This document shows positions 11,923 through 59,886 of a stretch of 64,000 nt of DNA, piece after piece. Under the pieces are notes generated by a model. The model did not search any database. It had not been told where the DNA came from and worked only from the letters and a program-made list of their open reading frames with translations. The first letter of the stretch is position 1; each line of letters begins with the position of its first letter. A program made the position numbers and the translations under genes. This stretch comes from Candidatus Fermentithermobacillaceae bacterium (GTDB taxonomy: Bacteria; Bacillota; Sulfobacillia; Fermentithermobacillales; Fermentithermobacillaceae), in assembly GCA_018052455.1 (NCBI GenBank), contig JAGPNE010000001.1, positions 295,261 through 359,260 on the forward strand, read 5' to 3'.

Positions 11923-11924
11923 CC

Positions 11925-20292: not shown

Positions 20293-21804
20293 TTGCATTA
20301 TCCAAACCACAGACGACGGATACTCTTGGCTCTAGCTGTTTGTACTCTTGTGTCGATCTTTACAGTCTCAGCAAAGGCAAATGCCCAGTCGGCCCTGGTA
20401 TACCTGGATCCTGATGCTTACCCAAATATCTCGTTGAAGGTTGCTCCAGCAGAAGCACCGTATGCGAACGTCTTTCTTGACATGGCTCCAATAAATAGCC
20501 CGGTGAGACCTTACGTTGAAAACGGATGCACTATGGTACCCATAAGAGCGCTAGGAGAATCACTCGGAGCTCAGATTGGATGGGACTCAGTAAGCAAAGC
20601 AGCCACATATTCCAAGGGTGAAGTTAGTCTAATTGTCACCATTGGAACGCCTACTATTGAAACTGCTGGTGGTAGAACAATAGCTATGCCACAGCCTGCG
20701 GCTTTGGTTAACGGAACTACAATGGTGCCCCTGCGTCTTTTCAGCGAGATTCTGGGTTACAAAGTACTCTGGGATGCAAGTAGTCGTTCAGTCTACATAA
20801 CTTCAACACCAGGGCCATTGGAACTATGGGGATTCTATGCGTTGGGATCTTCAACCTATTCAAGTTGGAAGGATTTATTTGGCACCGAGTATCCTTACAC
20901 AAATTCTTCTGGTTTGGTCAAAAACACCCAAGGCATCTTTGCGGGGTGGTTTTTTGTGAATCAAGACGGAACGATAACATCTGACGAAAACCCAACTGGC
21001 TTTCAGAAACCTGATGGCTGGCCTTCGGTTATCCTTGAGTCGAAGCGGCAAGGTGTGAAACTGTTTTCAATGTACTTTGCCGACCAAGAGCACAGCAGTA
21101 TATGCACGTTGCTCGAGGACCCTGTTTTGAGAAGCAAACTCGCCAAGGAGATTTCAGCTGCATCTTTCGAGTATGACGGGGTGCTAATAGACTTTGAGGA
21201 AATCGGTTTTGGTCGATCTGCAGCTGATTCAGACATGAGGAACTTTAACGCGTTCCTGGATGTACTCCATGCTTTTTTGGAAGGGAAATCTCTGGCCGTA
21301 TCTGTGCCCCCTTTGAACGGCAGCTTCAAAGGCTATGATCACGCCCATATCGGCGAAATTGCCGATTCTATTGTGCTTATGGCCTATGGATATGAGGACA
21401 GGTCTATACCAACGTCGACTGCACCTTTTGACAAAGTTGACGAAGCGATAAGGCTAGAGATGGAGGTAGTTGATCCAGGTAAGATCATTCTTGGAGTTCC
21501 TGCATATGGGACTTTGTATGCTACGGATTCTGGAAAGACGTACCTTTTTTCGAAACCGCCGGCAAAAGATCTAGGGACCAAGCTTCCAGAATACTCGGCA
21601 GACGAGGCAACTGAAAGATCATTTGCCCCGGATAGCCTGTGCAATCACCTCAAATGGCAAGGACAGCAACTGGAGTACGAAGGTTTTTTGGAAGACGCAG
21701 CCAGTTTCAACGTCAGGATTAACATGGCAAAAAGATACGGAATAAAGGGCGTAGCAGTCTGGAGACTCGGGTTCGTTACGAAGACGGTTCTGGCGCTTCC
21801 ATAA
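20293..21804 (+). CDS. secreted glycoside hydrolase family 18 protein with copper-amine-oxidase-like N-terminal repeats
   Basis: ORF opens at 20221. TTG at 20293 gives a signal peptide (RRRILLALAVCTLV...AKANAQ) with a GAGGGG SD. Two Cu_amine_oxidN1-like repeats (MVPIRALGE, MVPLRLFSE) are followed by a GH18 core (LIDFEE). Confidence 0.75.
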   Translation: MHYPNHRRRILLALAVCTLVSIFTVSAKANAQSALVYLDPDAYPNISLKVAPAEAPYANVFLDMAPINSPVRPYVENGCTMVPIRALGESLGAQIGWDSVSKAATYSKGEVSLIVTIGTPTIETAGGRTIAMPQPAALVNGTTMVPLRLFSEILGYKVLWDASSRSVYITSTPGPLELWGFYALGSSTYSSWKDLFGTEYPYTNSSGLVKNTQGIFAGWFFVNQDGTITSDENPTGFQKPDGWPSVILESKRQGVKLFSMYFADQEHSSICTLLEDPVLRSKLAKEISAASFEYDGVLIDFEEIGFGRSAADSDMRNFNAFLDVLHAFLEGKSLAVSVPPLNGSFKGYDHAHIGEIADSIVLMAYGYEDRSIPTSTAPFDKVDEAIRLEMEVVDPGKIILGVPAYGTLYATDSGKTYLFSKPPAKDLGTKLPEYSADEATERSFAPDSLCNHLKWQGQQLEYEGFLEDAASFNVRINMAKRYGIKGVAVWRLGFVTKTVLALP

Positions 21805-21836
21805 ATCCGAATAGATGGAGCGCCAGAACCGACCCT
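21783..21836. repeat. copy D of the dispersed AGGGTCGGTTCT repeat (inverted pair forming a hairpin)
   Basis: GACGGTTCTGGCGCTTCC, then a 16-nt loop, then GGAGCGCCAGAACCGACCCT. The left arm encodes the GH18 C-terminus; the right arm holds the core in reverse orientation. Confidence 0.6.
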
Positions 21837-21841
21837 ATGAT

Positions 21842-23041
21842 TCAAAATTGGTCGTAGAGCAGCCCTGCGAAGCACATAAGCGCAAATTGGATTCCAGGAA
21901 CCAAAGAATCGATATAAAGAAACTCAGTGGTTTTGTGTCCGTTTTCTGATCGCTTAAAGCCCATTGTAACTGCAGGCCAGCCTCGTGACAAGGGAATATT
22001 AGAGTCTGTACTGCTATAACCAACGGTAAGGTCATAACCACACTCCTTGCCCAATTCCATAAGGCCCTGTATATAGGCACAGTCTACCGGAATCTCTCCT
22101 GTTGGCCGATCGCCTACAACTGCAATGGTATATTCGGTTCCAGTAGAAGAAGCTGCTTCTAAGAGACATTTCATTATTTCTTCTTCAAGTTCTACCAAGC
22201 ATTTTGCGTCTACCGATCTCATATCCAACAACATGTGCGCATCCTGGGCAATCGAGTTCACCGAATGACCCCCTTGAACAACGCCTACATTGTAAGTCGT
22301 CCTTGGAGACTCGGGCACCTGAATCCGCGAAATATTCGCTATTGCCACCCCTATGCCGTAGATGGCGTTCGTGTTGCCGAAACTGCCCCAGCTATGTCCC
22401 CCTTGCCCCTTAAAGTCTACGCGGAGTCTCCTACTGCCAACCCCTCCATTTACGATATAACCCATCCCTCCGTCTATGTTCAGAAACACCACGTTTTCGG
22501 GATGGATTCGGAACCCACCGAAGTCATAGTTTTCTATGTTATCACAGAAAAATCGTGCCCCTTTGAGGTCTCCTAACCCTTCTTCTCCTACCGTAGATAC
22601 AAGAACAACCGGATGTTCAAGAGGCAAGTGTTGCTTGAAGATCTTGCCCAGCAACAACATACATGCTAAAGAAGCTGAATTGTCACTAACGCCGGGCGCG
22701 GCAAGAATATTGCCATCTCTTTTCACAGTAAGATCTGTATCAAATGGAAAAACCGTGTCCATATGCGCCATACTTATAACGGTCTTTTTATGATCTTTTC
22801 CAGGGAAAAAGGCCAGCACGTTCCCAACCTCGTCCCTTGCAACGAAGGGGAAGCCCATGCTTCGCATCTTTTTCTCCAAGTATTCCGAACGCTGGTCCTC
22901 CTCATTGCTCGGCGCCGGAACCTGCGTAATTTCAGCAATGAGTTCAACATACTCCTCCTCACATGAACGCAGATAATCCAGCCCTTCCTTCACTACAGCC
23001 TTCTCTTGCAGAACCTCCGAGATCATCTCAATCCCTCCCAT
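21842..23041 (-). CDS. M20/M25/M40 family metallopeptidase
   Basis: HMDTV and VGEEGLGD M20 motifs. Start chosen at the internal Met because upstream ORF sequence is made up of repeat copy A. Confidence 0.75.
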   Translation of the reverse strand: MGGIEMISEVLQEKAVVKEGLDYLRSCEEEYVELIAEITQVPAPSNEEDQRSEYLEKKMRSMGFPFVARDEVGNVLAFFPGKDHKKTVISMAHMDTVFPFDTDLTVKRDGNILAAPGVSDNSASLACMLLLGKIFKQHLPLEHPVVLVSTVGEEGLGDLKGARFFCDNIENYDFGGFRIHPENVVFLNIDGGMGYIVNGGVGSRRLRVDFKGQGGHSWGSFGNTNAIYGIGVAIANISRIQVPESPRTTYNVGVVQGGHSVNSIAQDAHMLLDMRSVDAKCLVELEEEIMKCLLEAASSTGTEYTIAVVGDRPTGEIPVDCAYIQGLMELGKECGYDLTVGYSSTDSNIPLSRGWPAVTMGFKRSENGHKTTEFLYIDSLVPGIQFALMCFAGLLYDQF

Positions 23042-23060
23042 ACTGACTATTCTACCATGT

Positions 23061-23130
23061 CGCAAGGGGTCGGTTCTCGTGCTTCTCCAATAGGCAACAC
23101 TATTCCTCGAAAACAAAGCACGAGAACCGT
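23061..23130. repeat. copy A of the dispersed AGGGTCGGTTCTC repeat with a distal inverted partner
   Basis: GGGGTCGGTTCTCGTGCT at 23066-23083 and its exact reverse complement AGCACGAGAACCG at 23118-23130. Confidence 0.6.
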
Positions 23131-23156
23131 TCCGGATGTATAATATGTTTGGCAGT

Positions 23157-23376
23157 CTTCGGGGCAGGGTGAAATTCCCGACCGGTGGTAATGCCGCTTC
23201 GCAAAAGGCGGACGAGCCCGACAGCCCCAGCGGTTGAGTCCGGTGAGATTCCGGCGCCGACAGTTATAGTCCGAATGGGAGGAGACTGGGGTACTTGTAC
23301 TTTACCCACAGTTGCCTAAACTTTTTAACCCCCTGAAGTAGCCAGACTCAAACTTTCAAGTATCTAAGGGGGTTTT
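23157..23376 (+). promoter_or_regulatory. FMN riboswitch (RFN element) with SD-sequestering expression platform
   Basis: CTTCGGGGCAGGGTGAAATTCCCGACCGGTGGTA...AGCCGACAGTTATAGTCCGAATGGGAGGAG is near-identical to the B. subtilis ribD leader consensus. Downstream, AACCCCCT (23327-23334) is the exact complement of the SD AGGGGGTT (23367-23374). Confidence 0.85.
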
Positions 23377-23379
23377 CCA

Positions 23380-23901
23380 ATGGGAAAAAGTCATGATTCT
23401 CTAATCACATTGGTAGTCCTGGGTCTGGTAACTTCAATAGTATTAGTATCTACTATGTTTCTCAAGTTACCGACCGCAACAGGCTACGTTCACCTAGGAG
23501 ACGGCGTGATTTTCGCCACCTCCCTTGCTCTCGGCCCACTTTACGGCATCGTTGCAGGCGCTTTAGGTTCGGCTCTTGCAGATATCTTTGGCGGGTACGT
23601 AGTCTGGGCGCCATGGACTCTGGTCATCAAAGGAGTGGCAGGTTTCATAGTGGCCAAGCTAGGCTACAATAAGGACAAAAAGAAACAGGTTTTCGCTATG
23701 GTGCTAGCATCAATTTGGATCATAGCAGGGTACGCGGCGGGAACCGCCGTGATTTATTCGCCCATGGCAATACTCCCTGAAGTAATGGGCAACGTGGTTC
23801 AAACAGGTTCGGGTGTACTAATTGGCGCAGTCTTGAGTCCTGTATTGGGCAAGATCATGTCAGAAACAAGCCTGAGCAGTAAAGTCGTGAAAGAACACTA
23901 A
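23380..23901 (+). CDS. ribU: ECF-transporter substrate-specific (S) component, probably riboflavin RibU
   Basis: 173 aa, about 5 TM helices, ECF S-component-like. Substrate assigned from the upstream FMN riboswitch. Confidence 0.7.
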   Translation: MGKSHDSLITLVVLGLVTSIVLVSTMFLKLPTATGYVHLGDGVIFATSLALGPLYGIVAGALGSALADIFGGYVVWAPWTLVIKGVAGFIVAKLGYNKDKKKQVFAMVLASIWIIAGYAAGTAVIYSPMAILPEVMGNVVQTGSGVLIGAVLSPVLGKIMSETSLSSKVVKEH

Positions 23902-23911
23902 CAAAAAGACA

Positions 23912-23962
23912 CACGTTGTCCGGCAAAAACCTTACTTAGTGCCAAGGATGCCGGACAACGTG
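23912..23962. terminator. bidirectional hairpin terminator (14-bp arms cacgttgtccggca/tgccggacaacgtg)
   Basis: perfect inverted repeat between convergent ribU and the lyase gene. Confidence 0.55.
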
Positions 23963-23992
23963 CTCACATTAGATGCCTACTATTCTGATGGT

Positions 23993-25378
23993 CTACCCTA
24001 CTCTTTCAAACCTCGCAGTAAAGTGGCGGAGCACCGGTGCCTGGTGCACAATCCTAAGTCCCTTTACCGACGATGCGCGTTCTTTTATCGCCTTCATTGT
24101 CTTGGCCACATATTCCATGTGCCTGTCGGTATATACTCTTCTAGGTATTGCTAGGCGCACAAGTTCCATCTGAGGCCAAATATCTTCCCCGGTTTCAGAG
24201 TCTTTGTGCCCAAAAGCACAGCCACCCAGTTCGACTCCTCTAACTCCACCCTCTATGAACAATTCGACGGTCAGAGCCTGAGCCGGAAACTCATGCCTAG
24301 GGATATGCGGCAGCAAAGATTTTGCATCGACATATATCCCATGTCCTCCGCTAGGTCTTACGATCGGAATGTCACACGCGGTAAGAAGATCGCCTAGATA
24401 AGCTACCTGACCAATTCGGTCCTCCAGATAGCGCTCGTCAAGGACCTCTCTAAGACCTCTTGCCACAGCTTCGAGGTCTCTCCCAGCCAGCCCCCCGTAA
24501 GTCGCGAAACCCTCAAAAGGTATTTGCCACTCAATCGCCTTCTCGTAGTTGTCCTTATTGTTGAAAGCGATGAATCCGCCTATGTTGACCAGCGCGTCCT
24601 TTTTCGCGCTCATGGTGCAACCATCGCCATAGGAAAACATTTCTCTTACAATGTCTGCAATTGATTTATCTTCATACCCTGGTTCAAGTTTTTTAATAAA
24701 ATATGCGTTCTCAGCAAATCTAGCTGCATCAAAGAACATGGGAATATGATACTTGTCTGCAATAGCCCGTACTCCCCTTATGTTCTCCATAGAGACAGGC
24801 TGCCCGCCATTGTTGTTGCAAGTTATAGTTACCAATATCAGCGCCGCTTTGTTTTTATCTCTCTCGATTTCTTCTTCTAACAAGTTGAGGTCAAAGTTCC
24901 CCTTGAAAGGTGCTTCTGCAGCAACATCGTAACCGATTTCCGCGAGACAATTCACAGGCTGTGCTCCTCGAAGAAGAATATGTCCCTCCGTCGTGTCGAA
25001 ATGCATATTGCCCAGGACACGATCTCCGGGCTCCACAAAGATGTTCATGAGGATGTGTTCGGCACCCCTACCTTGATGTGTTGGCGCTACGTATTCGTAA
25101 CCCATAACGTCTCTTACTGAATCTTTCAAGTGATAGTAGTTCCTGCTTCCTGCGTATGACTCGTCTCCCATCATCATACCCGCCCACTGATAGTCAGACA
25201 TCGCTGCCGTACCGCTATCGGTAAGAAGGTCTATGTACACAGCGTCAGCAGGCAGGGAAAAGACATTGTACCCGGCCTCATTTATCAGTTGTTCACGCGT
25301 TGGCCTATCTACCAACTCTATTCTTTCAATCATCTTGATCCTATACGGTTCGGCATAGTCTTGGCGTTCTCTAAACAT
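23993..25378 (-). CDS. beta-eliminating lyase, tyrosine phenol-lyase / tryptophanase family (closer to TPL)
   Basis: WAGMMMGDESYAGS, PTHQGRGAE and EMFSYGDGCTMSAKKD motifs, the last closer to TPL than TnaA. Start at the Met preceding EPYRIKMIE avoids overlap with the downstream gene. Confidence 0.8.
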   Translation of the reverse strand: MFRERQDYAEPYRIKMIERIELVDRPTREQLINEAGYNVFSLPADAVYIDLLTDSGTAAMSDYQWAGMMMGDESYAGSRNYYHLKDSVRDVMGYEYVAPTHQGRGAEHILMNIFVEPGDRVLGNMHFDTTEGHILLRGAQPVNCLAEIGYDVAAEAPFKGNFDLNLLEEEIERDKNKAALILVTITCNNNGGQPVSMENIRGVRAIADKYHIPMFFDAARFAENAYFIKKLEPGYEDKSIADIVREMFSYGDGCTMSAKKDALVNIGGFIAFNNKDNYEKAIEWQIPFEGFATYGGLAGRDLEAVARGLREVLDERYLEDRIGQVAYLGDLLTACDIPIVRPSGGHGIYVDAKSLLPHIPRHEFPAQALTVELFIEGGVRGVELGGCAFGHKDSETGEDIWPQMELVRLAIPRRVYTDRHMEYVAKTMKAIKERASSVKGLRIVHQAPVLRHFTARFERVG

Positions 25379-25403
25379 GCGATCACTCACTTTCAAGGCA
25401 TTT

Positions 25404-26369
25404 TCACATATTGCACAACCTTCTGAACACGTCCTCAGCACTGGAGATAACATTATCTATGATTTCCTTACACGACTCCTCTTTGTGTACCATTGCAGCG
25501 ACTTGTCCGGCCATCAAGGACCCATATTCTACGTCTCCATCGACAACTGCTCGCCTAAGCGCCCCGGCCCCTATCGCCTCTATCTGTCTCGGCGAAAGCC
25601 CTTTGGATTCTGCTTCCAAGAATTGCTTCGCAAGCTTATTGTTGAGCACTCGTACCGGATGCCCTGTACTTCTACCAGTTACCACTGTACTCCTGTCACG
25701 AGCCGCAATAATTGCTTTTTTGTAGTTAGGATGAACGCTGCACTCCTTTGCGCAGACAAAACGAGTTCCCATCTGTACGCCGCTCGCACCAAGAGCCAAC
25801 GCCGCAACGAGGCCTCTTCCGTCATATATCCCCCCAGCGGCCACAACCGGAATTGACACCGCATCAACTATCTGAGGAACCAAAGGCATGGTTGCGATAT
25901 CGCCTATGTGCCCCCCACATTCCATTCCCTCGGCAATCAGGGCATCTACACCTGTACGTTCGAGCCTCTTCGCAAGGTTTACCGATGCGACCACGGATAG
26001 TGTCCTTATTCCTGCGTCTTTGAATCTCGGTATGTGTATGCCCGGGTTACCTGCTCCCGTAATTACGACGGGCACTTTTTCTTCTATCACTAGATCGACA
26101 ATATCCTCAGCCAACGGCGACAAAAGATACACATTGACGCCGAATGGTTTGTTCGTAAGCTCTCTTGTCTTATGGATTTCCTCCCTCACTACTTGGCGTG
26201 GAGCATTCCCTACACCTATGACTCCTAATCCGCCGGCCTCGCTTACGGCAGCTGCAAGTTTGCCTGTCGCTACCCACGCCATTCCACCTTGTATAATCGG
26301 ATATTGAACATTCAAAAGATCACAAAGGACAGTCTTGATAGCCACCAATCTCCCTCCTATTAGGTGCAA
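25404..26369 (-). CDS. nitronate monooxygenase / enoyl-ACP reductase FabK-like FMN oxidoreductase
   Basis: YPIIQGGMAWV NMO-family N-terminus, TIM-barrel FMN motifs. Confidence 0.8.
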   Translation of the reverse strand: MHLIGGRLVAIKTVLCDLLNVQYPIIQGGMAWVATGKLAAAVSEAGGLGVIGVGNAPRQVVREEIHKTRELTNKPFGVNVYLLSPLAEDIVDLVIEEKVPVVITGAGNPGIHIPRFKDAGIRTLSVVASVNLAKRLERTGVDALIAEGMECGGHIGDIATMPLVPQIVDAVSIPVVAAGGIYDGRGLVAALALGASGVQMGTRFVCAKECSVHPNYKKAIIAARDRSTVVTGRSTGHPVRVLNNKLAKQFLEAESKGLSPRQIEAIGAGALRRAVVDGDVEYGSLMAGQVAAMVHKEESCKEIIDNVISSAEDVFRRLCNM

Positions 26370-43397: not shown

Positions 43398-44012
43398 TTG
43401 AATCTAGAACAGTTCCTAGAGGATCTACGTGCTCCGACGGGTGCACCGGGGGGCGGCGCAGCGGCCGCCATGGCAGGTGCCATGGGTTGTGCGCTTTTTC
43501 AGATGGTTGCAGGCGTAACTTCATCTCTGCCCCGGTTTTCGGAGAACAAGGACAAACTAGAGGAAATCTACAGCAAATCTGAAACTCTGTACAACACTTT
43601 TTTGCAATTGACGGAAAAGGACACAAATGCGTATAGACAAGTAGAGTCCGCCATGAAAATGCCAAAGAACACAGTAGAGGAAAAGGCTTCTAGGCGGCAG
43701 GCTATGCAAGAAGCATTTGGTGTGGCTACACAGATTCCGCTTCAGGTTATTCGCACATCACTTGAGGCTATGTCTCTTTTACCGGATCTACTCCTATACG
43801 GCAATCCCAACGCTATAACCGACGTATGCGTAGGAGCTTTCATGCTAGATAGTGCAGTGCGCGGCGCATCCGTGAACGCCAAAATTAACCTCGGCTCGAT
43901 AAAAGACGAAGAATTCAAGAATCGCTGCAATCTAGAGCTTCAGAGTGCAGAGCAAGATGCATCCAGGTACATGGCCCAGCTAGAGCACGCCATGGAAGAA
44001 GCAGGATTGTAG
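43398..44012 (+). CDS. formimidoyltetrahydrofolate cyclodeaminase (FtcD C-domain-like)
   Basis: 204 aa cyclodeaminase-domain similarity (GGGAAAAMAGAMG...). Confidence 0.8.
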   Translation: MNLEQFLEDLRAPTGAPGGGAAAAMAGAMGCALFQMVAGVTSSLPRFSENKDKLEEIYSKSETLYNTFLQLTEKDTNAYRQVESAMKMPKNTVEEKASRRQAMQEAFGVATQIPLQVIRTSLEAMSLLPDLLLYGNPNAITDVCVGAFMLDSAVRGASVNAKINLGSIKDEEFKNRCNLELQSAEQDASRYMAQLEHAMEEAGL

Positions 44013-44026
44013 GTTCACTGAACCGG

Positions 44027-44079
44027 GGGGACGGTACTTTTTGCTTCACTGTCTCGGTGAAGCAAAAAGTACCGTCCCC
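44027..44079. terminator. bidirectional terminator, perfect 23-bp stem with 7-nt loop
   Basis: ggggacggtactttttgcttcac / gtgaagcaaaaagtaccgtcccc between convergent genes. Confidence 0.7.
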
Positions 44080-44094
44080 TCCATTTGCTTTGAT

Positions 44095-45627
44095 TCACTT
44101 GACGCAGTATACACCCTGCTGTTGTATTGCCCTGCCTACCAAGTTTAGTCCGGCATCTCGGGCTTTTAGGACGTAATCTATGATCTCACTGCTTATGAGC
44201 TCTCCGGGAACTATCAAAGGCGACCCCGGCGGGTAAACTACAACTGTATCTGCCGAGATACGACCCTGGCTATTCCCTATTTCCATAAGTTGTGACGGCG
44301 ATAGAAAGGATTCCCTTAGCCCTTGAACTTTTTCTGGCCTAGGAGGCTCACCCAGACCTCTCAATGAGCCATGGCCCGACTGGCTTGGTTGCTTTCCAAA
44401 CCGTCTGGATAGATCTCCAAAAGCATCTGCCACCAATTCTATCTCCTGTGTTCCATCAGCGCCTGTTACAATCATCACTAGGTACGAAGGTCCAGCCATT
44501 TCGCAGACAATTGATTTCTCTGACGCAAGGTAGCGCGCAGCCTCCGGGCCAGTAATGTTAAGATCTCGCAGATCTACCAATATCCTCGATGGGTCACGAA
44601 AAATCCCTTGGGGCATCTTGGTTTGGCCATTGTGACCCGAAATCCCTATGAAGGGTACCTCCTCCAGACGCCTGGTAAGCTCGAGTGCACTATCGACGCT
44701 CTGTCTCACCCAGGCAGACTCGTCTTGTTGCAAAACGTCGATCGCCTGTTCCAAGGAAGACATGAGAAGATATGATGGCGACGTACTTTGAACACTCCTA
44801 AGAGACTCCTCGACCGAAGGCGCTATATCCGGGAACCTATTCTGCGCTCCGCTCGCTATATGAAGCAGACCTGTCTGAGTAAAGGCTGTCGTCGTTTTGT
44901 GAGTCCCATGTATCACAATATCCGCCCCACACTTGAGCGCAGACTGCGGCAACATTCTATTGAATCCAAAGTGTGCACCGTGAGCTTCGTCAACAATGAG
45001 CATAGCTCCCCAAGAATGTGCGATTTCTGCGATTCGAGTGAGATCCCTCGCAAATCCACAGTAAGTAGGATTTACAACAAACACGGCTTTGACTTGGTCT
45101 TCATCTGAATTGCAACGGTTTGATTTCAAAGCTTCTGACAGGTCGTCTTCTGAAATGGGTAAATAGCCACCGAAGTCCTCGTAGTAGTCGGGCCGCACCC
45201 ACATAGGCTCGAATCCGGACATGACCATAGCAGAAATTGCAGACTTGTGAGTGTTTCTCGGCAGAATCACTTCTCCCGGTCCTAACATCATGCGTGCGGC
45301 TAGAAAAGATGCTTGCACGCCGCAGCTAGCCCCATTGATTAGGAAGTAGGAACGCAGGGATCCAAAGACGCGTTGTGCCATCTCTTCGCTTCGTAGAATA
45401 CAACCTGAGGGATAGTGAAGATTGTCCAATCCTGGACATTCAGTAACATCGAGCAACCTACAGTCGTCTAGGATTCGGCAAACCCTCTGCATATCTGGGT
45501 CAGGAGCTACTCCGCCCAGGCTTGTAGGCTTGCCTTTATGCCCGGGCATATGCATTCTAACAGGCTCTTCTGCGGCATACTGACATAAGGCGTCTATTAT
45601 GCCGCTTGCATTCCGGTCTATGTTCAA
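44095..45627 (-). CDS. Orn/Lys/Arg decarboxylase family PLP enzyme (SpeA/YaaO-like)
   Basis: MPGHKG N-terminus typical of OKR_DC_1. Confidence 0.8.
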   Translation of the reverse strand: MNIDRNASGIIDALCQYAAEEPVRMHMPGHKGKPTSLGGVAPDPDMQRVCRILDDCRLLDVTECPGLDNLHYPSGCILRSEEMAQRVFGSLRSYFLINGASCGVQASFLAARMMLGPGEVILPRNTHKSAISAMVMSGFEPMWVRPDYYEDFGGYLPISEDDLSEALKSNRCNSDEDQVKAVFVVNPTYCGFARDLTRIAEIAHSWGAMLIVDEAHGAHFGFNRMLPQSALKCGADIVIHGTHKTTTAFTQTGLLHIASGAQNRFPDIAPSVEESLRSVQSTSPSYLLMSSLEQAIDVLQQDESAWVRQSVDSALELTRRLEEVPFIGISGHNGQTKMPQGIFRDPSRILVDLRDLNITGPEAARYLASEKSIVCEMAGPSYLVMIVTGADGTQEIELVADAFGDLSRRFGKQPSQSGHGSLRGLGEPPRPEKVQGLRESFLSPSQLMEIGNSQGRISADTVVVYPPGSPLIVPGELISSEIIDYVLKARDAGLNLVGRAIQQQGVYCVK

Positions 45628-50825: not shown

Positions 50826-52970
50826 TTGAACGAATGTAAGAAAGAAGACGGAAGTGGGATTGGAGCAGAGCGTATGCAATCTAGGCACAGCATAGATATG
50901 AGTGAACAATCTGGTAATCTGACCGAACGAGCATCTTTGTATCCTCAGTCTTCGGACCTTAACATAACAATTGCCCTCGTCGGACAACCCAACGTTGGCA
51001 AGAGCGTAATTATGAATTTGCTCACAGGCGCAGGCGCTATGGTTTCAAACTACCCGGGCACTACGGTTGAAATCACAGAAGGCTATTTTCCCACGCCTGC
51101 AGGCAAGGTGCGCATAATCGATACGCCAGGTATCTATAGCCTCCACTCGGATACACAGGAACAAAAAGTAACGCAGAGGATTCTGCTCGAAGAAGACATA
51201 GACATCATAGTCAACGTAGTAGACGCCAGAAATCTCTCGAGAAATCTGTACCTGACGCTGCAACTTTTGGAACTTGACATTCCACTAATCCTGGTCTTGA
51301 ACCAAATGGATATGGCTGAAGAACTGGGGATGGAAATTGATGTGAGTGCGCTTTCGGACATTCTTGGGGTGCAGATCGTCACCATGGTAGCCTCTAAGGG
51401 AAGAGGATTGGACGAGCTAAAGGAAATCATCTCGACAATTAGCGCTTGTTCGAAAGACATGGAACTTGACGAAGGAAGTGTACCTCTTTCTACCCATGGG
51501 CGCAATAAAGATTTATTGACTTACTCAGAACCAGTAGAAAACGTCCTATCCATGCTTCAGAGCCGTATTGAAGATACAATCCCGGAGGAAGAAGGCAAAC
51601 ACAGGCTTCATCCACCGAGAGCTCTTGCGATTCACCTTATGGAACACGACAGTTTGGACGAAGATGTTTTCCATGTCTATCCTGAACTTGCTGAAGTTGT
51701 CGAGAGTTTTCAGAAAGATCTATCAAACGGATATATGCCGTGCGAAAACTGTTTTAGGGGATGCGCATTTTGTCCTGCCGGGCAGCAGTCTCATCCGCCT
51801 CTGCAGACATGTATCGAAAGAACACAGAAGGCCCGTGAAATAGCATTACAAGTCGTGAGATACAAGACAAAAGAATCGGTTTCTCCAAGAGCCCGCATCG
51901 AAGAATTCTTGGACAGGCCTTCTACTGGTATCCCGGCTCTAATACTGATAACCTTGGCTTCGCTCAAAGTGATCTTATGGTTCCTGGAATTCGCCGAGGC
52001 GTTTGTCCCATGGGCACTTGGGCCGCTTGTCGACGCAATAACAAGGTTTGCCCACACCTTCCCTCCCGGCAGCGCCCTTGAAATGATAATTTCTGCCATA
52101 CCAGAGGGTCTACTTTTACCTTTTGAAGTAGTGATGCCTACCATGATATCCATCTACGTTATAATGGCACTCTTGGAGGACTCTGGACTAATGCCCAGAA
52201 TCGCTGTGATGATGGATAGCGTCATGTCTCTTCTCAAGTTGCCAGGGCAGGCCATAATCCCGATCGTACTTGGCTTCGGATGCAGGGCCCCTGGGGTCCT
52301 AGCAACAAGAGCTTTGCCCGACAAGCAGTCTCGATTGGTTGTAACTGCTCTTCTCGCAATTCCCATACCTTGTGCGGCTACCATTGGAATTGTCACAGGC
52401 GTAGCTAAGTCTTTCGGTGCAAATCTTTGGGTAATTTACGGCTCTGTATCGGTAGTTTTCGTGTTGCTCGCGCGCCTACTCGCAAAATATCTCAAGTCGG
52501 ATTACGAATTGATACTTGAGGTCCCTCCCATACAGATTCCTTCTCTCAAAGGCGTAGGAATGAAGGTATGGATGCGGTTAGAAGGCTTTTTCAAGCAGGT
52601 ACTACCTGTACTCATTATGACAAGCATAGGAATTAAGATACTGTTGAATTCGGGAGCTCTGGAAGTTCTAAGCAAACTAGACCCTATTAGCATGAAGGTG
52701 TTCGGAATTCAAGGACAATCTCTTGCAGCTGTCGCAGTTACTGTGGTTCAAAGATATGCTGCACCAATGGTACTCTTAAATCTCCCTTTAAGTGCACGGG
52801 AAGCAACCATAGCCACATCCATGATAGCGCTTTCCATGCCGTGCTTGCCAGTATCATTTCTAGTCTTCAAGGAATTCGGGTGGAAAACTCTTATTTACAT
52901 ATTTGCAATAGCCATACTGATTTCACTGACAGTAGGAATCACCCTAAACCTCCTTCTGCCTGTGTTTTGA
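50826..52970 (+). CDS. feoB: ferrous iron transporter FeoB
   Basis: G-domain (GQPNVGKS, DTPG) plus Gate-motif membrane domain. Exact start uncertain; candidates 50826, 50874 and 50898. Confidence 0.85.
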   Translation: MNECKKEDGSGIGAERMQSRHSIDMSEQSGNLTERASLYPQSSDLNITIALVGQPNVGKSVIMNLLTGAGAMVSNYPGTTVEITEGYFPTPAGKVRIIDTPGIYSLHSDTQEQKVTQRILLEEDIDIIVNVVDARNLSRNLYLTLQLLELDIPLILVLNQMDMAEELGMEIDVSALSDILGVQIVTMVASKGRGLDELKEIISTISACSKDMELDEGSVPLSTHGRNKDLLTYSEPVENVLSMLQSRIEDTIPEEEGKHRLHPPRALAIHLMEHDSLDEDVFHVYPELAEVVESFQKDLSNGYMPCENCFRGCAFCPAGQQSHPPLQTCIERTQKAREIALQVVRYKTKESVSPRARIEEFLDRPSTGIPALILITLASLKVILWFLEFAEAFVPWALGPLVDAITRFAHTFPPGSALEMIISAIPEGLLLPFEVVMPTMISIYVIMALLEDSGLMPRIAVMMDSVMSLLKLPGQAIIPIVLGFGCRAPGVLATRALPDKQSRLVVTALLAIPIPCAATIGIVTGVAKSFGANLWVIYGSVSVVFVLLARLLAKYLKSDYELILEVPPIQIPSLKGVGMKVWMRLEGFFKQVLPVLIMTSIGIKILLNSGALEVLSKLDPISMKVFGIQGQSLAAVAVTVVQRYAAPMVLLNLPLSAREATIATSMIALSMPCLPVSFLVFKEFGWKTLIYIFAIAILISLTVGITLNLLLPVF

Positions 52971-53005
52971 GAAATCGCATGTATGCCTAAGAAAGGAGAA
53001 GCAAC

Positions 53006-53257
53006 GTGACCCTCCTCGACGCACGACCCGGTGATACAATAGTGATCGAAGAATCCAACTTGGGCAGATCAGCCCAAAAAAGACTATGGGATCTTGGCCT
53101 TTTGCCTGGCACAAAAGCAAAAGTAATCTGCTCCCACCCGTTCAAAGGACCAATATTGCTCGAAGTAGACAACTCAAGACTAGCAATAGGCCGAAGACTT
53201 GCACGACAAATAAGTGTTAGTAAGGAGCACAGGGTCGGTTCTCATGCTCCACGTTAG
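53006..53257 (+). CDS. feoA: ferrous iron transport protein A
   Basis: FeoA fold. The last ~10 codons (EHRVGSHAPR) are encoded by repeat copy B. Confidence 0.75.
   Translation: MTLLDARPGDTIVIEESNLGRSAQKRLWDLGLLPGTKAKVICSHPFKGPILLEVDNSRLAIGRRLARQISVSKEHRVGSHAPR
53224..53250. repeat. copy B of the dispersed AGGGTCGGTTCTC repeat
   Basis: GGAGCA-CAGGGTCGGTTCTCA-TGCTCC; 6-bp stem with the core in the loop. Confidence 0.6.
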
Positions 53258-53289
53258 CTGTGTTTTCGAGTTGGAAGGAGGATTGTCTA

Positions 53290-53775
53290 ATGCCTAGACC
53301 TACTAAACCCAGGTGGGTAGAGTTTCCACCTAGGGCCTTGTATTTCAAGCCTGCAGGTGTTCCTAGGTCAGAACTTCAGGAAGTAATCCTTGGCGTAGAT
53401 GAAGTCGAAGCTATTCGCCTCAAAGACTATGTGGGCCTAGAACAGATAGAATGTGCCAAACGGATGAATCTGGCCCAGAGCACATTTCAGCGAATTCTCA
53501 CCGAGGCCAGAAGAAAAGTTGCAGAAGCTCTAATTGAAGAAAAATCTTTGCGTGTAGAAGGCGGCAACTACCTGGTATTCCCTATGAACTATAGGTGCCA
53601 TACGTGCGGCCACGAGTGGACAAACGATGAAAGGCCCAAAGAAGACATCGTATGTCCAAAATGCGGGGGGCTAAACTTGGAATCTTTCAGAGAGCCATGT
53701 GCTTCTGACCAAGCTCACAAACACGCTGGCAGAACACAAAAAAGACATGGCCACGAACGACGCCGAAATCGGTAA
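53290..53775 (+). CDS. DUF134 (UPF0251) putative DNA-binding protein with C-terminal zinc ribbon
   Basis: MPRPTKPRWV...YFKPAGVP...LEQIECAKRM DUF134 signature, C-terminal CHTCG...CPKCGG, GGAGGAG SD. Confidence 0.7.
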   Translation: MPRPTKPRWVEFPPRALYFKPAGVPRSELQEVILGVDEVEAIRLKDYVGLEQIECAKRMNLAQSTFQRILTEARRKVAEALIEEKSLRVEGGNYLVFPMNYRCHTCGHEWTNDERPKEDIVCPKCGGLNLESFREPCASDQAHKHAGRTQKRHGHERRRNR

Positions 53776-54734: not shown

Positions 54735-54772
54735 TGGATACTTGCCCTTGAGATAAGCCCTATCGTGTCTTA

Positions 54773-55447
54773 TTACAGTAGCTCTGCCAAGGTACGCGCG
54801 ACTATTGAGCGAGCAAGAATTACAGGAACCCCGAGGATCTCTTTCACCATGTTTTTATCCGCAATTGTGTATCCTATACAATCAAGAATCCCCATCTGCA
54901 CGTCTGCCTTCTTTAAGGCTTCGGCCGCCTCTACAATTCCGGCCATTGATCCGTATGGCGAAGCTGCCTGCACTTGCACCGAAGACGCGGTTCTTGACCA
55001 CCTTAGTTTTGCATGCTCCATCTGATCTTTATCCGGAATAAAGACACCCAGTCTCATCCCTTTTCCAACTGCGCTGACCGTATTGAATAGTACTTTCTCG
55101 GGCCTTACAAGTAGTTTGCTGCTTCTAAATTCTGGGAATTCCCCTGTGCAGACCAGTGCAATAATCTGCGCCCCTTTTCCTTCCAGTTCATTGATTTTCT
55201 CTTGCATCCTTGGCAGAATGTGTTTCTCAGCGATTTTCACCTGCGTTCCATCCCTCATTCGTGTGATCAGTACATAATCACCCGGTTCAGGGGATAGCTT
55301 CCTTACCTCATCAAGAGTCATACCATCAAGAGCACCAGCCTCAATCACGTGAACACCATCTCCCAAGAATGGAATCATCTCAGGTATTAAATCGTGTCTG
55401 GGCGACTGGCCAATGGTAACGGTACCTAAAATCCTCTTAGTGTGCAT
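54773..55447 (-). CDS. aroM: AroM family protein
   Basis: alignable along its length with E. coli AroM (TIGxxP, ILDCxG, VPVxLxxxxxARxxAELL). Confidence 0.75.
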   Translation of the reverse strand: MHTKRILGTVTIGQSPRHDLIPEMIPFLGDGVHVIEAGALDGMTLDEVRKLSPEPGDYVLITRMRDGTQVKIAEKHILPRMQEKINELEGKGAQIIALVCTGEFPEFRSSKLLVRPEKVLFNTVSAVGKGMRLGVFIPDKDQMEHAKLRWSRTASSVQVQAASPYGSMAGIVEAAEALKKADVQMGILDCIGYTIADKNMVKEILGVPVILARSIVARTLAELL

Positions 55448-55469
55448 AACCTCACCGCCCTTTCCGCTG

Positions 55470-56438
55470 CTACTTGAGCTCAGGGTAAACACACGTCATC
55501 TCTCCATGGTACCCAAGTGTCTGCAAGTGATTCATTGGCCCGTAAAGGCGCACAATGGCATCGAACTCATTCTCATCAAAGAAAGAGTATTTCTCTGTGC
55601 CGAAGCCTTTTGCGACTTCTACAGAAAAACGAACAACCTGTTCAATATCGACCACATGACTGGCACCTGTGGCGCAGCCAGGAACCGCCGTTTCCGTCGT
55701 GATGGCTACTCCGACTACCGGAGCGGATGTTGCGGTAGCCGGCTGAAGAATACTGTTCAAATGGTAAAGACCATTTCCATAGGGCGTTATGTCCTGTACA
55801 GTCACAGGAAAGGTCACTGGCAATCTACCTGTCACGATGCTCATGACCTCAAGCAAGTCTTCAGATATTCGCAAGATATAGCCTTCTTTGACTGTAGGAG
55901 AAATCGCAAAACCCTTGTGGTTTATGACTCTATTACCCTTGGTTGTATCGATAGACAAAACCGCATCCATCCCCGAATCTACCTCGTACCTGTTCATTGT
56001 GTCCATACCTACAGGTGATCCCATAAATGGCACGGGGTCGTGAGGTTGAGTTGGAGCGTTAGGACAGATATGAGTAGTCACAATCACATCTCCTGGCAGA
56101 ACATCGCCTTTTTGCGCCATATGCGCTAGCTTGATCGCAACTGCCAATGCCGAAACTGCGCCGTCTCCGTCTGAAACCAAACCAATCATCTCAGGTCGAG
56201 CGCCTATGCCCCCCAATCGCCCTATCACTCCCAAAGTAGGAGCGTGTCCTCCCGAACTCTTCCCTTCAGAACCTGGAACCAATACTTTTACAAAATCCGT
56301 GCTGCCGCTGTCGCCGTGTATTGTTGCAAACTCACCATGCTGTAGTCCCAAACCCCTTAGGTACTCTATTACCTCTTTGCCGTTGACCTGGGCGCTGTCA
56401 AGCAACGAAATTGCCTCAAGTGTAGATCTAAAACTCAC
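55470..56438 (-). CDS. conserved hypothetical protein (possibly DUF1177 family)
   Basis: 322-aa ORF between aroM and the LD-carboxypeptidase gene. Family assignment is from memory, not verified. Confidence 0.5.
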   Translation of the reverse strand: MSFRSTLEAISLLDSAQVNGKEVIEYLRGLGLQHGEFATIHGDSGSTDFVKVLVPGSEGKSSGGHAPTLGVIGRLGGIGARPEMIGLVSDGDGAVSALAVAIKLAHMAQKGDVLPGDVIVTTHICPNAPTQPHDPVPFMGSPVGMDTMNRYEVDSGMDAVLSIDTTKGNRVINHKGFAISPTVKEGYILRISEDLLEVMSIVTGRLPVTFPVTVQDITPYGNGLYHLNSILQPATATSAPVVGVAITTETAVPGCATGASHVVDIEQVVRFSVEVAKGFGTEKYSFFDENEFDAIVRLYGPMNHLQTLGYHGEMTCVYPELK

Positions 56439-56454
56439 CTAAAATCACCCCCAT

Positions 56455-57435
56455 CTAAATCACTGGTTGTTCAAGAAATACCAACCGACTATAGTCCTTC
56501 TTCCCAAGATCCGCCGTAATTTCCACGCGCAACCCCAAAGGTAGTACCCCATTGTACTTACCATGTCCGCAAGGAACATTAGCCAAACAAGGTTTGCCAG
56601 TTTCGCTGAAGTACTGTCTTAACACCTCTTCTACTGAAAACGAAGGTCCCTGCGGTTGAGGATCCGGCTCACAATCAGTGAAATCCCCAAGGCAAAAGCC
56701 CTCTGCGTCGTCTAGTTTGCCTGAGAGCTTAAGTTGGCATAACATCCGGTCTATTCTGTATGGCTTTTCGCCTATGTCTTCTAAGAAAAGGATGCAGCCT
56801 TTGGTCTGGATCTCCCAGGGAGTACCTATAGTCGATGCGACCAACGAAAGGTTCCCGCCAACAAGTCTGCCGGAGGCTCTGCCCTTCTCTAGCACAGTCA
56901 ACGGTCGCCGCTCCTGCACTGCATCTTCGGATCCACACGTAGGAAGAGGCAGATCCTTTAGAGGCCGCATACCAAACAAAACATCCCTAACGCAGGCTAG
57001 GTTGTATTCCTGCATCTTGGGTGCCCAGAGTTCCGCCATAGGCCCGTGGAACGTGCAGAGATTCGCTTCCTTCAAAAACGCGAGATGAAGCGCTGTGATA
57101 TCTGAGTATCCCATCAAGATTTTCGGGTGTGCTCTAATACAATCAAAATCCAAAAGAGGAAGTATGCGCATGGCTCCATAACCTCCCCTAGCAGCTATCA
57201 CGGCCTTTACGTCGGGATCCGACCAGGCCCGCATGAGATCCAAGGCCCTTTCGTTATCCTTACCTGCTAGATAGCCCCATCGCTGCAGAACTGAATCACC
57301 AAATTGGACTTTGAGACCCAACTCCTCAAAGACACGCACTCCACGTTCTAGCGATTCTTGTTCAACCGGGCCCGATGGAGCCACTATAGCAACAGTATCA
57401 CCACTTTTTAGGGCCTTCGGCTTCACTACGTCCAT
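56455..57435 (-). CDS. LD-carboxypeptidase (peptidase S66, LdcA/MccF family)
   Basis: VAIVAPSG nucleophile region, S66-wide similarity. Confidence 0.85.
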   Translation of the reverse strand: MDVVKPKALKSGDTVAIVAPSGPVEQESLERGVRVFEELGLKVQFGDSVLQRWGYLAGKDNERALDLMRAWSDPDVKAVIAARGGYGAMRILPLLDFDCIRAHPKILMGYSDITALHLAFLKEANLCTFHGPMAELWAPKMQEYNLACVRDVLFGMRPLKDLPLPTCGSEDAVQERRPLTVLEKGRASGRLVGGNLSLVASTIGTPWEIQTKGCILFLEDIGEKPYRIDRMLCQLKLSGKLDDAEGFCLGDFTDCEPDPQPQGPSFSVEEVLRQYFSETGKPCLANVPCGHGKYNGVLPLGLRVEITADLGKKDYSRLVFLEQPVI

Positions 57436-57734
57436 AACCGCACTCCTTCCTGACTCTACGCCAATTACGTCTGCTCACCTACTTGCATACCTAGAGTAAC
57501 TTCGCCTAATGCTCTCTGATTCCCTTCAACAGGTGCCCACTTAATGCGCACCGAACCCCTCCTTAGACCCAACAGGGTGACGCAGGACGAAAAAATCTCA
57601 CGGGCGCGCACGAGTTGCATTAGATTTCCAAAAGTGCAATCATATTCATGATGCATTTTCGAGCCTGGTATGTCATCTGTATTTGATTCAATATTTGGTC
57701 CCGATATCAGTTCCGCAAAAGGAGGCACACCAAA

Positions 57735-58073
57735 GTGGCAGTCTACGATAAGGCATATGAACTGGCGAGAGAACTCAAAGAAAGCGCGGAGTACAAAGAG
57801 TACCAAGCGGCCAAAGAGGCCATCGAAGGAAACGAGCCGGCCCTTCAAATCCTAAGAGATTATTGGCAGCAGCAACTGTCAATTCAAACCGCTCTACTGA
57901 CCGGAAGAGAACCGGACGAAAAAACCCAGGAGAGTTTCAGCAAAACCCAAGAACTCATAAGCATGCACGGACCGATCCAGAGATTCATGCAAGCCGAACG
58001 GCAGGTACTCACCATGCTCGCCGATATCCAGAGAATCCTTAGCGACTCCCTTGACTTACTAGACTACACCTAA
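57735..58073 (+). CDS. YlbF/YmcA family regulatory protein
   Basis: GTG start with AAAGGAGG SD; 112 aa helical protein with YlbF-like signature. Confidence 0.65.
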   Translation: MAVYDKAYELARELKESAEYKEYQAAKEAIEGNEPALQILRDYWQQQLSIQTALLTGREPDEKTQESFSKTQELISMHGPIQRFMQAERQVLTMLADIQRILSDSLDLLDYT

Positions 58074-58082
58074 CAAGGGAAA

Positions 58083-58109
58083 GAAGCGCAGGGTCGGTTC
58101 TCCTGCTTC
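58083..58109. repeat. copy C of the dispersed AGGGTCGGTTCTC repeat
   Basis: GAAGCGCAGGGTCGGTTCTCCTGCTTC in the convergent intergenic region. Confidence 0.6.
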
Positions 58110-58202
58110 ATCAACACCTAAGGTCTTACAAGAGACAGAAAACAGAGGCAGTCTTTCACATAAGACACTGCAGCATGATTTAATACCAATTCCATAGCTA
58201 AA

Positions 58203-58694
58203 TCACTCTATCAACCCTAGGTCGCTTAAGAGCCCTTCAATCTCCGAATATTTGCGATATCCGGGAGAAGCTTTTTTGAGCTTGCCCTCCGCGTCAAAGA
58301 ACAAAAGAGTAGGAACTCCTTGAATTTTGTAAGCTGAAGCGGTACCTGGGTAGAGTTCTGCATTCATCTTAAGTACAAGGATTTTGTTACTGTACTTCGC
58401 GTTCAACTCAGAGAGTTCAGGTTCCATCTTGACGCAATAGGGACAAGATTTTGTGTAGAACTCTAGAACTACAGGTTTCCCCTGCGATAAATACCCATCC
58501 AGAGTGTCGTCAGTAACATCTAGAATCGAACGAGAAGCAGTTCCTTCCTCCAAACTCGGAGAACGTACAGTTCCAACATACCATATTCCAGCCGCCGCTA
58601 GGATTACGAGCAGTAGGAGAGCGATCCAGCGGTGCCTGCCAATCCATGTAAATGGGCACGTCTTTTTCATTAGAGTTGGACTCCTCCTCGTCAT
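58203..58694 (-). CDS. membrane-anchored thioredoxin-fold thiol:disulfide oxidoreductase
   Basis: N-terminal TM, CPYC active site. Confidence 0.8.
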   Translation of the reverse strand: MTRRSPTLMKKTCPFTWIGRHRWIALLLLVILAAAGIWYVGTVRSPSLEEGTASRSILDVTDDTLDGYLSQGKPVVLEFYTKSCPYCVKMEPELSELNAKYSNKILVLKMNAELYPGTASAYKIQGVPTLLFFDAEGKLKKASPGYRKYSEIEGLLSDLGLIE

Positions 58695-58719
58695 TTAGTA
58701 TCATCAAAGCAACACCGCT

Positions 58720-59430
58720 TCAAATGTACGGTCTAATGAGCAAATACCCTCCGAATCCAGCGATTATGATGCCGCTTAGTTTCCTAGCTACTTCAACAAC
58801 TAAGACTCCTTTTTCATTTTCAAGAAACCCCATAAACGCGGATGTAAAGAGGCCGGCCAAAATAACAAATACAGACTGACCCAATGAGTACCCAAAAAGC
58901 AGCATGCCTCCGCGCATTAAAGAGCCTGAAGAAGCCGCGATAGATAGTATGGCTACAAGCATCGGAGTTGTGCAAGGAGACGATGATAGCCCATAGAGCA
59001 TCCCCATAAAAAGCGGTCTAAAGACCAAATTTGCTGAATCACCAGAATTGCATCTCGAAGAATCTTGGGGATTCTGATGTGTCTCTTCTGCTTCCGATGG
59101 AATTAGAGCCTCGCACGTCCGCGATATCCCAAACACCCCGAAATACGATAATCCTGCGATCAGAAACGCAATCCCTGCAACCCACCTAAGCCAAGGGGCG
59201 ACAAAGAGCAGGGACTTACCAACGAGACCCACAACAACCCCCGCAAATGAAAGGGCCAGAGCCATACCAAGTACAAACATGAACACATGTGTCCGCTGTC
59301 TATGTTTCTCAACTGCCGCTACGTGCGCTACTACGATAGGTATGGCAGATAGAGCACAGGGATTGACTGAAGATAACACGCCTGCCATCACCGCGAACAC
59401 TGGCCCTAGAATTGGGTTATCGAAATTCAT
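58720..59430 (-). CDS. ccdA: cytochrome c biogenesis / thiol-disulfide transporter CcdA (DsbD core)
   Basis: conserved Cys in NPCAL, 6 TM helices. Start at the internal Met of MNFDNPIL. Confidence 0.8.
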   Translation of the reverse strand: MNFDNPILGPVFAVMAGVLSSVNPCALSAIPIVVAHVAAVEKHRQRTHVFMFVLGMALALSFAGVVVGLVGKSLLFVAPWLRWVAGIAFLIAGLSYFGVFGISRTCEALIPSEAEETHQNPQDSSRCNSGDSANLVFRPLFMGMLYGLSSSPCTTPMLVAILSIAASSGSLMRGGMLLFGYSLGQSVFVILAGLFTSAFMGFLENEKGVLVVEVARKLSGIIIAGFGGYLLIRPYI

Positions 59431-59886
59431 CCATCCAGGCAAGACCAGACTATACCTCCCTGTAACGTGCACGCAGAGCCTATACCTCACTATAGGACCC
59501 CTCGTGTATTTCACTTAAGTCATTCTATCAGTAGACCACCTGTTTTGTGACTTTTCTACTCAATTTTCATGACCGGACATATCTTAGATTGGCGCAAACT
59601 GCAACAACAGGAAGTTCTCCTCAAACCGTGTGCAGAAGCAGGATCACGCCGAGCAAAACCAAGAATGCTCCCAGGCAGCCCCTTGAACAGCACAATCGGA
59701 TCACTCCTCCCTATAGACAATTGTGATACTCTATAGCCCTATTACGATGCAAAACGCCATCGGTTTAGTGGCATGGGATATCACATTGAAGCGCGTTGAT
59801 ATAGGATACGCGAACACAATCAAGAGTCAATATCTCTCTACTCAATGGATAAAAAACCTTCGAGGCGTCCTTGTAACAACGAAGAA

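Follow-up and report, generated by a model that had tools for sequence, protein, structure and literature searches.

The 64,000-nt stretch of Candidatus Fermentithermobacillaceae bacterium contig JAGPNE010000001.1 analysed here (positions 295,261 to 359,260, hereafter the window) carries a short dispersed repeat with a conserved 13-nt centre. With good confidence, at a probability of about 0.8, we assign this repeat to a dispersed Bacillota family resembling repetitive extragenic palindromes (REPs) and their hairpin-forming doublets (REPINs), whose partner is a Y1 HUH transposase of the REP-associated tyrosine transposase (RAYT) clade, of the type described as TIRYT, as TnpA-REP subclass 2.1 and as RAYT Group 1. 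Given that inverted copies of the repeat flank a RAYT-type gene elsewhere, it is read as transposase-associated miniature mobile DNA and not as a regulator site or an RNA gene. We observed the family and its distribution, its extragenic bias, the geometry of its doublets, the flanking of the gene by its units and the duplication of a whole repeat-gene-repeat unit. By analogy with E. coli TnpA-REP and with the insertion sequences (ISs) of the IS200/IS605 type, we infer that the transposase mobilises the repeats. The enzyme would recognise the folded unit in single-stranded DNA or, alternatively, the asymmetric 13-nt core through a helix-turn-helix (HTH) domain; it would then cut and rejoin the DNA beside the unit, and units would in this way be copied into intergenic DNA, as singlets, as head-to-tail arrays and as tail-to-tail doublets able to fold into long hairpins.

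The repeat unit and its family

The original prediction for this stretch, made from the letters alone, was based on a 13-mer said to occur at least four times. The exact 13-mer AGGGTCGGTTCTC is present twice in the window, at 53231 and 58090, both on the + strand, and four copies are reached only if one mismatch is allowed, as in GGGGTCGGTTCTC at 23066 (+) and AGGGTCGGTTCTG at 21824-21836 (-). Its frequency was rightly said to lie far beyond chance, as zero exact copies were expected or found in 100 shuffles of the window; with up to two mismatches, seven matches were counted against 1.28 expected. When the four sites are read side by side a longer common unit appears, GAAGCA-N-(A/G)GGGTCGGTTCTC-N-TGCT(T/C)C. 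The consensus of the repeat unit is GAAGCA-N-GGGG(A/T)CGGTTCTC-N-TGCTTC, an imperfect palindrome of ~29 nt of which the 13-mer is the conserved centre. Units are 27-31 nt long, with a stem of 6-7 bp, a variable N/N position, three inner pairs and a 7-nt loop, and doublets span 54-75 nt.

A covariance model was built from 136 metagenome copies, with the window copies excluded. It recovers window copies A to D with E-values from 1e-9 to 3e-5 and also finds a fifth locus, doublet E, at 44017-44089, which had escaped the original prediction. The window total is five loci, namely singlets B and C and the tail-to-tail inverted doublets A, D and E, and all copies are intergenic or at gene 3' ends, some of which they clip. 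Core position 5 is T, the minority form, in copies A to D. In doublets A and D each main unit pairs with a nearby inverted and more degenerate unit, and the long hairpins formed in this manner have folding energies of -30 to -33 kcal/mol with z from -4 to -6.6. Singlets B and C are self-contained hairpins with stable folds. Indeed, the two settings described for the core, a hairpin loop and the base of a stem, correspond to the singlet (self-hairpin) and doublet (inverted pair) forms of one and the same unit.

The metagenome scan covered at least 120 loci, that is 622 kb around seed matches, and all metagenome figures given here refer to the matches listed for these loci. Among them, 269 copies lie within two mismatches of GGGGACGGTTCTC, with the consensus G-GAAGCA-N-GGGGACGGTTCTC-N-TGCTTC-C. 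Core positions are 96-100% conserved except for two end positions, the 3' half-stem is ~90% conserved and the 5' half-stem 70-85%, and 257 of the 269 copies have A at core position 5. The coding background and the gene gaps were derived from crude open reading frame (ORF) calls on these loci. On this basis 89% of copies are extragenic against a coding background of 75%, and 11% lie within ORF cores. Convergent gaps hold 33% of copies compared to 16% of all gaps, a twofold enrichment, and divergent (promoter) gaps are depleted, with 12% of copies compared to 17% of all gaps. Neighbouring units are arranged tail-to-tail in 61 pairs, head-to-tail in 48 and head-to-head in 6.

These copies show no preferred orientation: 38 are sense and 35 antisense to their flanking genes, and the corresponding counts are 89/82 for GC skew and 65/65 for the strand that carries most genes. 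A role as RNA tied to one strand is disfavoured by this balance, and the same counts give no support for lagging-strand targeting. In our view it is very unlikely that the hairpin acts chiefly as RNA, whether by ending transcription, by stabilising mRNA 3' ends or as a stem-loop bound by a protein, with the transposase link secondary. Such a role would agree with the copies found directly after stop codons, with the enrichment between convergent genes and with the stable folding of singlets and doublets, and REPs of E. coli do stabilise upstream mRNA. However, the asymmetric 13-nt core is equally frequent on both strands, no T-run follows hairpins B, C or E, and no promoter or terminator predicted by a scan of A and D overlaps the units. 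As the original prediction would have it, no known RNA family was found at the units: Rfam yields only a flavin mononucleotide (FMN) riboswitch and a tRNA in the window at the gathering score, and nothing credible at E<=10 on the repeat-rich loci L021 and L026.

A further possibility, to which we give the least weight of all, is that the units are chromosomal sites of a DNA-binding protein (operator or nucleoid) or a DNA-uptake sequence. Across many genera the core hardly varies, doublet A sits between two divergent promoters, and the protein associated with the family has a predicted C-terminal HTH, so that a domesticated DNA-binding role would be possible. The depletion of divergent gaps and the enrichment at gene 3' ends are nevertheless opposed to a binding site, and the tandem, nested and truncated copies resemble replication products and not regulation. 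Uptake motifs, which the original prediction had also considered, are frequent inside genes, yet these copies are mostly extragenic, and the repeat is tied to a transposase; that suggestion finds no support. Its preference for a REP-like element over an operator is upheld by a dispersed, extragenic palindrome found in both orientations and in inverted doublets, which flanks a RAYT-type gene. Taken together, the features of the family suit neither an uptake sequence nor an operator nor an RNA element read from one strand, and point to a repeat at the DNA level.

Arrays in which complete and truncated units follow one another head-to-tail were observed at L039 (~5770-5850), L021 (1005-1060) and L026 (6742-6850). 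Several arrays repeat the 5' half-stem and the core without the 3' half-stem, and nested or overlapping units are seen as well. These arrays and nested units may be footprints of the copying mechanism.

Species-representative genomes were scanned with the strict window variant AGGGTCGGTTCTCNTGCT, not with the commoner GGGGACGG form, and 27 matches were obtained, most of them chance matches in unrelated phyla. Five Bacillota loci share the hairpin, in Niallia oryzisoli, Bacillus sp. T33-2 and two Clostridiales metagenome-assembled genomes. Extra copies occur near these loci, some of them in tandem, and 8-kb stretches of Niallia and of metagenome loci contain several. Among named Bacillota genera, the unit is found in Niallia, Bacillus, Geosporobacter, Syntrophocurvum and Cytobacillus. 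A literature search by sequence string returned only unrelated primers. A relation to CGTC-tagged REPs was considered given that CGTC is found in the reverse complement of the common form; it was rejected, the corresponding letters being CGAC in the window variant and the motif an internal one.

The associated Y1 transposase gene

The ORFs of all fetched loci were clustered to find recurrent neighbours, and one recurrent family adjoins the repeat, encoding a Y1 HUH transposase of ~257 aa. This gene stands beside the repeat in seven loci of other organisms, five from metagenomes and two from named genomes. Inverted units are present on both sides of it in L088, L117, L154 (Geosporobacter) and L157 (Syntrophocurvum), and the one captured side carries a unit in L120, L044 and L121. 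In L088 and L117 the inverted units lie 8-44 nt from the ORF ends with their tails toward the gene. In Ca. Syntrophocurvum alkaliphilum (CP046457), 46 nt separate the end of GGAAGCATAGGGACGGTTCTTTTGCTTCC from the start codon downstream, and the inverse copy begins 4 nt after the stop. Geosporobacter ferrireducens (CP017269) holds two copies of the Y1 gene, each bracketed by inverted repeats, and the corresponding 879-bp repeat-gene-repeat units (L154, 9925-10811 and 19711-20597) are 98% identical and 9.8 kb apart. Since the borders of the 879-bp unit coincide with the outer hairpin edges, it is the whole repeat-gene-repeat unit that was duplicated.

The protein matches Pfam Y1_Tnp (PF01797) with E-values of 1e-14 to 1e-18. 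On the NCBIfam model for REP-associated tyrosine transposases (NF047646, cut-off 80) three members score 82.8, 76.9 and 70.5 bits, and on the IS200 equivalog model (NF033573, cut-off 55) the protein reaches at most 22 bits. Its best match among solved structures is 4ER8, the E. coli TnpA-REP, aligned across the HUH and Tyr motifs. All 14 homologues compared share the motifs HUH (NHxH), RYIHxNP (Y---NP) and WSS without change. A C-terminal extension of ~100 aa ends in a conserved HTH-like RQxARxxG motif; matches of this extension to HTH_23 and HTH_29 are below threshold (E 2e-4, 21.8 bits for a cut-off of 24.6), and one homologue has a precomputed PF13384 match. A total of 4081 homologues were found at E<=1e-20, many of them auto-annotated "RayT", and identity is 62-83% among the best 120 of these 4081. 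The named homologues are all from Bacillota, namely Geosporobacter, Anaerovirgula, Desulfosporosinus, Desulfotomaculum, Dehalobacterium, Syntrophocurvum, Cytobacillus and Ornithinibacillus.

In Cytobacillus oceanisediminis (L156, 6248-9971), the RAYT-like gene is immediately preceded by a region in which a second, shorter Y1_Tnp gene and broken-up Mg-chelatase/ComM-like ORFs adjoin a full-length ComM-like gene. This region may be rearranged.

The units could otherwise be relics, that is solo ends or deletion derivatives resembling miniature inverted-repeat transposable elements (MITEs), of an ordinary autonomous and horizontally moving IS of the IS200/IS605 type. The left-end and right-end hairpins of IS200/IS605 elements are not mutual inverted repeats, whereas the units flanking the Y1 gene are inverted. 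Furthermore, the protein scores 70-83 bits on the REP-transposase model and falls far below the IS200 cut-off, the 33-nt consensus gave no real BLAST match in 72,556 plasmids or 50,697 phage records, and the metagenome loci hold 269 repeat units for 5 Y1 genes. We regard this origin as improbable, even though the two nearly identical repeat-gene-repeat units in Geosporobacter and the second Y1 gene near the first in Cytobacillus speak in its favour. Horizontal spread would also fit the conservation of both the Y1 protein and the repeat across Bacillota classes, and Bertels et al. (2017, PMC5581495) rank Group 1 RAYTs with the groups that most resemble ISs.

Several observations count against the assignment to a REP/REPIN-like family with a RAYT partner. 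In the organism itself only five loci were seen in ~79 kb, no further copy of the repeat being found in the ~15 kb beyond the window ends, and no RAYT homologue was found in the 64-kb window by tblastn, nor in these flanks. A sister species, with an M20 peptidase gene 82% identical, has decayed counterparts of doublets A and D, with no sign of recent movement. The position table of the 269 copies displays no conserved flanking tetranucleotide and no unpaired 5' GTAG tag, the conserved block being internal. Support from stem covariation is weak as well, because the stem sequence is itself conserved, and the N/N position pairs in just 49% of copies.

Loci in the window and gene-content differences

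The units of the five loci are listed in the table below, together with the riboswitch that adjoins doublet A. The window stems from an uncultured Bacillota bacterium of the kind living in anaerobic digesters. The gene calls of the original prediction (GH18, M20 peptidase, FeoB/FeoA, YlbF, thioredoxin, and the FMN riboswitch with the riboflavin S-component gene after it) all hold.

Table. Repeat units of the window and the neighbouring riboswitch, with scores from the covariance model (repeat units) or from Rfam (riboswitch).
Feature	Position	Strand	Sequence or remark	Score
Doublet D unit 1	21780..21801	+	GAAGACGGTTCTGGCGCTTCC; head degenerate	
Doublet D unit 2	21814..21846	-	AGGGTCGGTTCTGGCGCTCC	24.2 bits, E 3.4e-5
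Doublet A unit 1	23056..23088	+	GGGGTCGGTTCTCGTGCTTC	30.8 bits, E 2e-7
Doublet A unit 2	23112..23145	-	GGAACGGTTCTCGTGCTTTG read on - strand	10.8 bits, E 0.88 alone
FMN riboswitch	23151-23290	+	Rfam RF00050	84.8 bits
Doublet E unit 1	44017..44050	+	GGGGACGGTACTTTTTGCTTCAC at 44027-44049	23.8 bits, E 4.5e-5
Doublet E unit 2	44056..44089	-	perfect 23-nt inverted copy at 44057-44079, 7-nt spacer	
Singlet B	53221..53253	+	GGAGCA-C-AGGGTCGGTTCTC-A-TGCTCC	34.0 bits, E 1.9e-8
Singlet C	58080..58112	+	GAAGCG-C-AGGGTCGGTTCTC-C-TGCTTC	37.8 bits, E 1e-9

Doublets D and A stand on either side of the M20 peptidase gene. Unit 1 of doublet D lies within the final GH18 codons (KTVLALP; stop 21802-21804), as had been stated for the left arm of this copy, and unit 2 occupies the gap where GH18 and M20 converge, with the M20 stop codon (21842-21844) overlapped by its outer end. 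The hairpin of the two units has an energy of -30 to -33 kcal/mol with z about -6. The coordinates first given for this copy stand, but the inverted repeat runs into what had been described as a 16-nt loop, and the real unpaired loop is shorter. Unit 1 of doublet A is found, as anticipated, upstream of the M20 gene, 30 nt from its start codon (23026, - strand), and forms with its partner a hairpin of -30 kcal/mol (z -4.0). This partner contains AGCACGAGAACCG, the exact 13-nt complement of unit 1; the sequence was correctly predicted and its position is 23117-23129 instead of 23118-23130. Unit 2 lies immediately upstream of the promoter region of the FMN riboswitch (putative -10 box), which itself precedes the gene of a riboflavin S-component of the energy-coupling factor (ECF) type at 23380-23901.

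Doublet E, whose core has A at position 5, represents a subfamily variant. The genes on its two sides are convergent, FTCD_C (43398-44012) to the left and one for an Orn/Lys/Arg decarboxylase (44095-45627) to the right. Singlet B forms the GGAGCA/TGCTCC hairpin that had been proposed and encodes the last 11 codons of feoA (53006-53257), the Pfam FeoA domain ending at residue 72 of 83. Thus singlet B and doublet D now provide the C-terminal codons of feoA and GH18 respectively. Singlet C lies between the convergent ylbF (57735-58073) and thioredoxin-like (58203-58694) genes, also as predicted, and its sequence is identical in six metagenome contigs.

Around singlet B (50826-53775) the gene order is feoB, feoA and then a DUF134/zinc-ribbon gene; the feoB ORF has 714 aa, with a TTG start ~46 residues ahead of the FeoB_N domain. 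Further downstream, a weak match to the covariance model was noted at 59057-59097 (+) inside a DsbD-like gene (16.2 bits, E 0.015, with a 13-nt insertion). It is probably due to chance, although it could be a decayed intragenic unit. A degenerate remnant suspected at 59609-59645 near the tRNA-Pro went undetected by the covariance model even at E<=10. The tRNA-Pro (CGG) is at 59887-59963 (-), with no repeat unit beside it.

A comparison of orthologous loci, suggested along with the original prediction, yielded decayed copies at A and D and no clean empty site at either locus in the 82% sister or in a 70% relative. In the latter, an unrelated hairpin follows the M20 gene and the upstream neighbour is different, in line with a rearranged region. 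To judge from these orthologous loci, doublets A and D are old, and the window loci, which sit between promoters or at the 3' ends of genes, have the look of ancient insertions passed on vertically. The sister counterparts of A and D (L166-L168) are decayed relative to perfect stems of 13-14 bp in the window lineage, and the arms of doublet D differ between sister and window by changes that look partly compensatory (TTCTGG/CCAGAA compared to TTCCTGG/CCAGGA). Such changes could reflect either selection that maintains the hairpin or a conversion event inside the palindrome.

The repeats also mark the borders of a difference in gene content. Indeed, the M20 gene of the window is bracketed by doublets D and A (21780-23145), whereas locus L053 of a syntenic relative (~9849-12116) exhibits the same order of MFS, GH18, FMN riboswitch, RibU and lyase without M20 and has a single intact repeat unit at the M20-less junction. 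This suggests a repeat-associated deletion or insertion of M20, in either direction.

Comparison with known systems

Systems of the REP/REPIN-RAYT kind have so far been studied almost only in Proteobacteria. In the RAYT literature, as far as it is searchable, no repeat family of Bacillota or Firmicutes is described, and both the Bacillota family and a hairpin unit beside a subclass 2.1-type gene are new to the same extent relative to published descriptions. A consensus and a covariance model would let annotators mask units that cause spurious short ORFs or altered gene 3' ends, as in feoA and GH18. The family also offers a tractable enzyme-substrate pair for DNA recognition by the HTH-bearing RAYT subclass, and its units may serve as markers of rearrangement breakpoints in uncultured digester Bacillota.

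With the REPs, bacterial interspersed mosaic elements (BIMEs) and REPINs that accompany RAYTs (PMC2817692, PMC3116915, PMC3333891), the repeat shares its short extragenic palindromes, their enrichment at gene 3' ends and the overlap of some copies with gene ends. As in E. coli and Pseudomonas, inverted doublets give long hairpins and inverted copies bracket a Y1 HUH gene. However, classical REPs have an unpaired 5' GTAG tag, which is lacking here, and the conserved 13 nt of the Bacillota unit are placed between the stem halves; moreover, the Bacillota doublets, unlike REPINs, are mostly tail-to-tail. Classical REPs are species-specific, whereas the Bacillota unit is nearly invariant across classes. 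The transposase is ~100 aa longer than E. coli TnpA-REP and carries a C-terminal extension with a putative HTH. In addition, E. coli REPtrons are reported not to be mobile as a unit (PMC3333891), in contrast to the repeat-gene-repeat unit that is itself duplicated in Geosporobacter.

The Y1 HUH transposase fold and the hairpins at element ends are common to IS200/IS605 elements, from which the family departs by a protein far under the IS200 cut-off, by end hairpins that are mutually inverted and by solo repeats that greatly outnumber the genes. With Firmicutes MITEs such as bcr1, RUP, BOX and EFAR the repeat has in common that it is small, non-coding, dispersed in intergenic DNA and of inverted symmetry. 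According to their descriptions these MITEs measure 70-300 bp and depend on DDE-type IS transposases, which sets them apart from a unit of ~29 nt with a Y1 enzyme, and the label MITE-like given in the original prediction fits only loosely for a unit of this size.

The closest likeness is with TIRtrons/TIRYT, RAYT-like genes between inverted repeats starting with GGGGWSAS, some of which form dispersed dimers or clusters (Di Nocera et al. 2013, PMC3733652). Here too, a RAYT-like gene with a C-terminal extension (putative HTH) is accompanied by inverted repeats and by dispersed dimers and clusters, and the head of the Bacillota repeat, GGGGACGG or GGGGTCGG, matches GGGGWSAS at 7 of 8 positions. 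The difference lies at head position 7, which is G and not A (G in 263 of the 269 metagenome copies), and in one unit being common to several Bacillota classes; no Bacillota species was found in the searchable strain list of that study. TnpA-REP subclass 2.1 has a C-terminal HTH (Bac_DnaA_C, HTH_23 or HTH_28), and no REP-like structures were reported beside its genes (Quentin et al. 2018, PMC6006769), whereas each Bacillota unit has an outer complementary half-stem and folds as a hairpin. RAYT Group 1 is widely distributed and includes Clostridia (Bertels et al. 2017, PMC5581495). No other RAYT group is as large as that of the subclass 2.1/Group 1 transposases. TIRYT, subclass 2.1 and RAYT Group 1 are probably the same group, and membership of the Bacillota transposase in subclass 2.1 fits best, by shared features and not by a tree. 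The near-invariance of the core is perhaps due to its being read by the extra HTH domain. Tentatively, and at somewhat less than even odds, we propose that the family is an undescribed pan-Bacillota REPIN-RAYT-like system, in which a Group 1/subclass 2.1 RAYT would have a true hairpin-forming dispersed partner repeat with a near-invariant 13-nt core across classes, moving both solo and as repeat-gene-repeat and marking the borders of gene-content differences.

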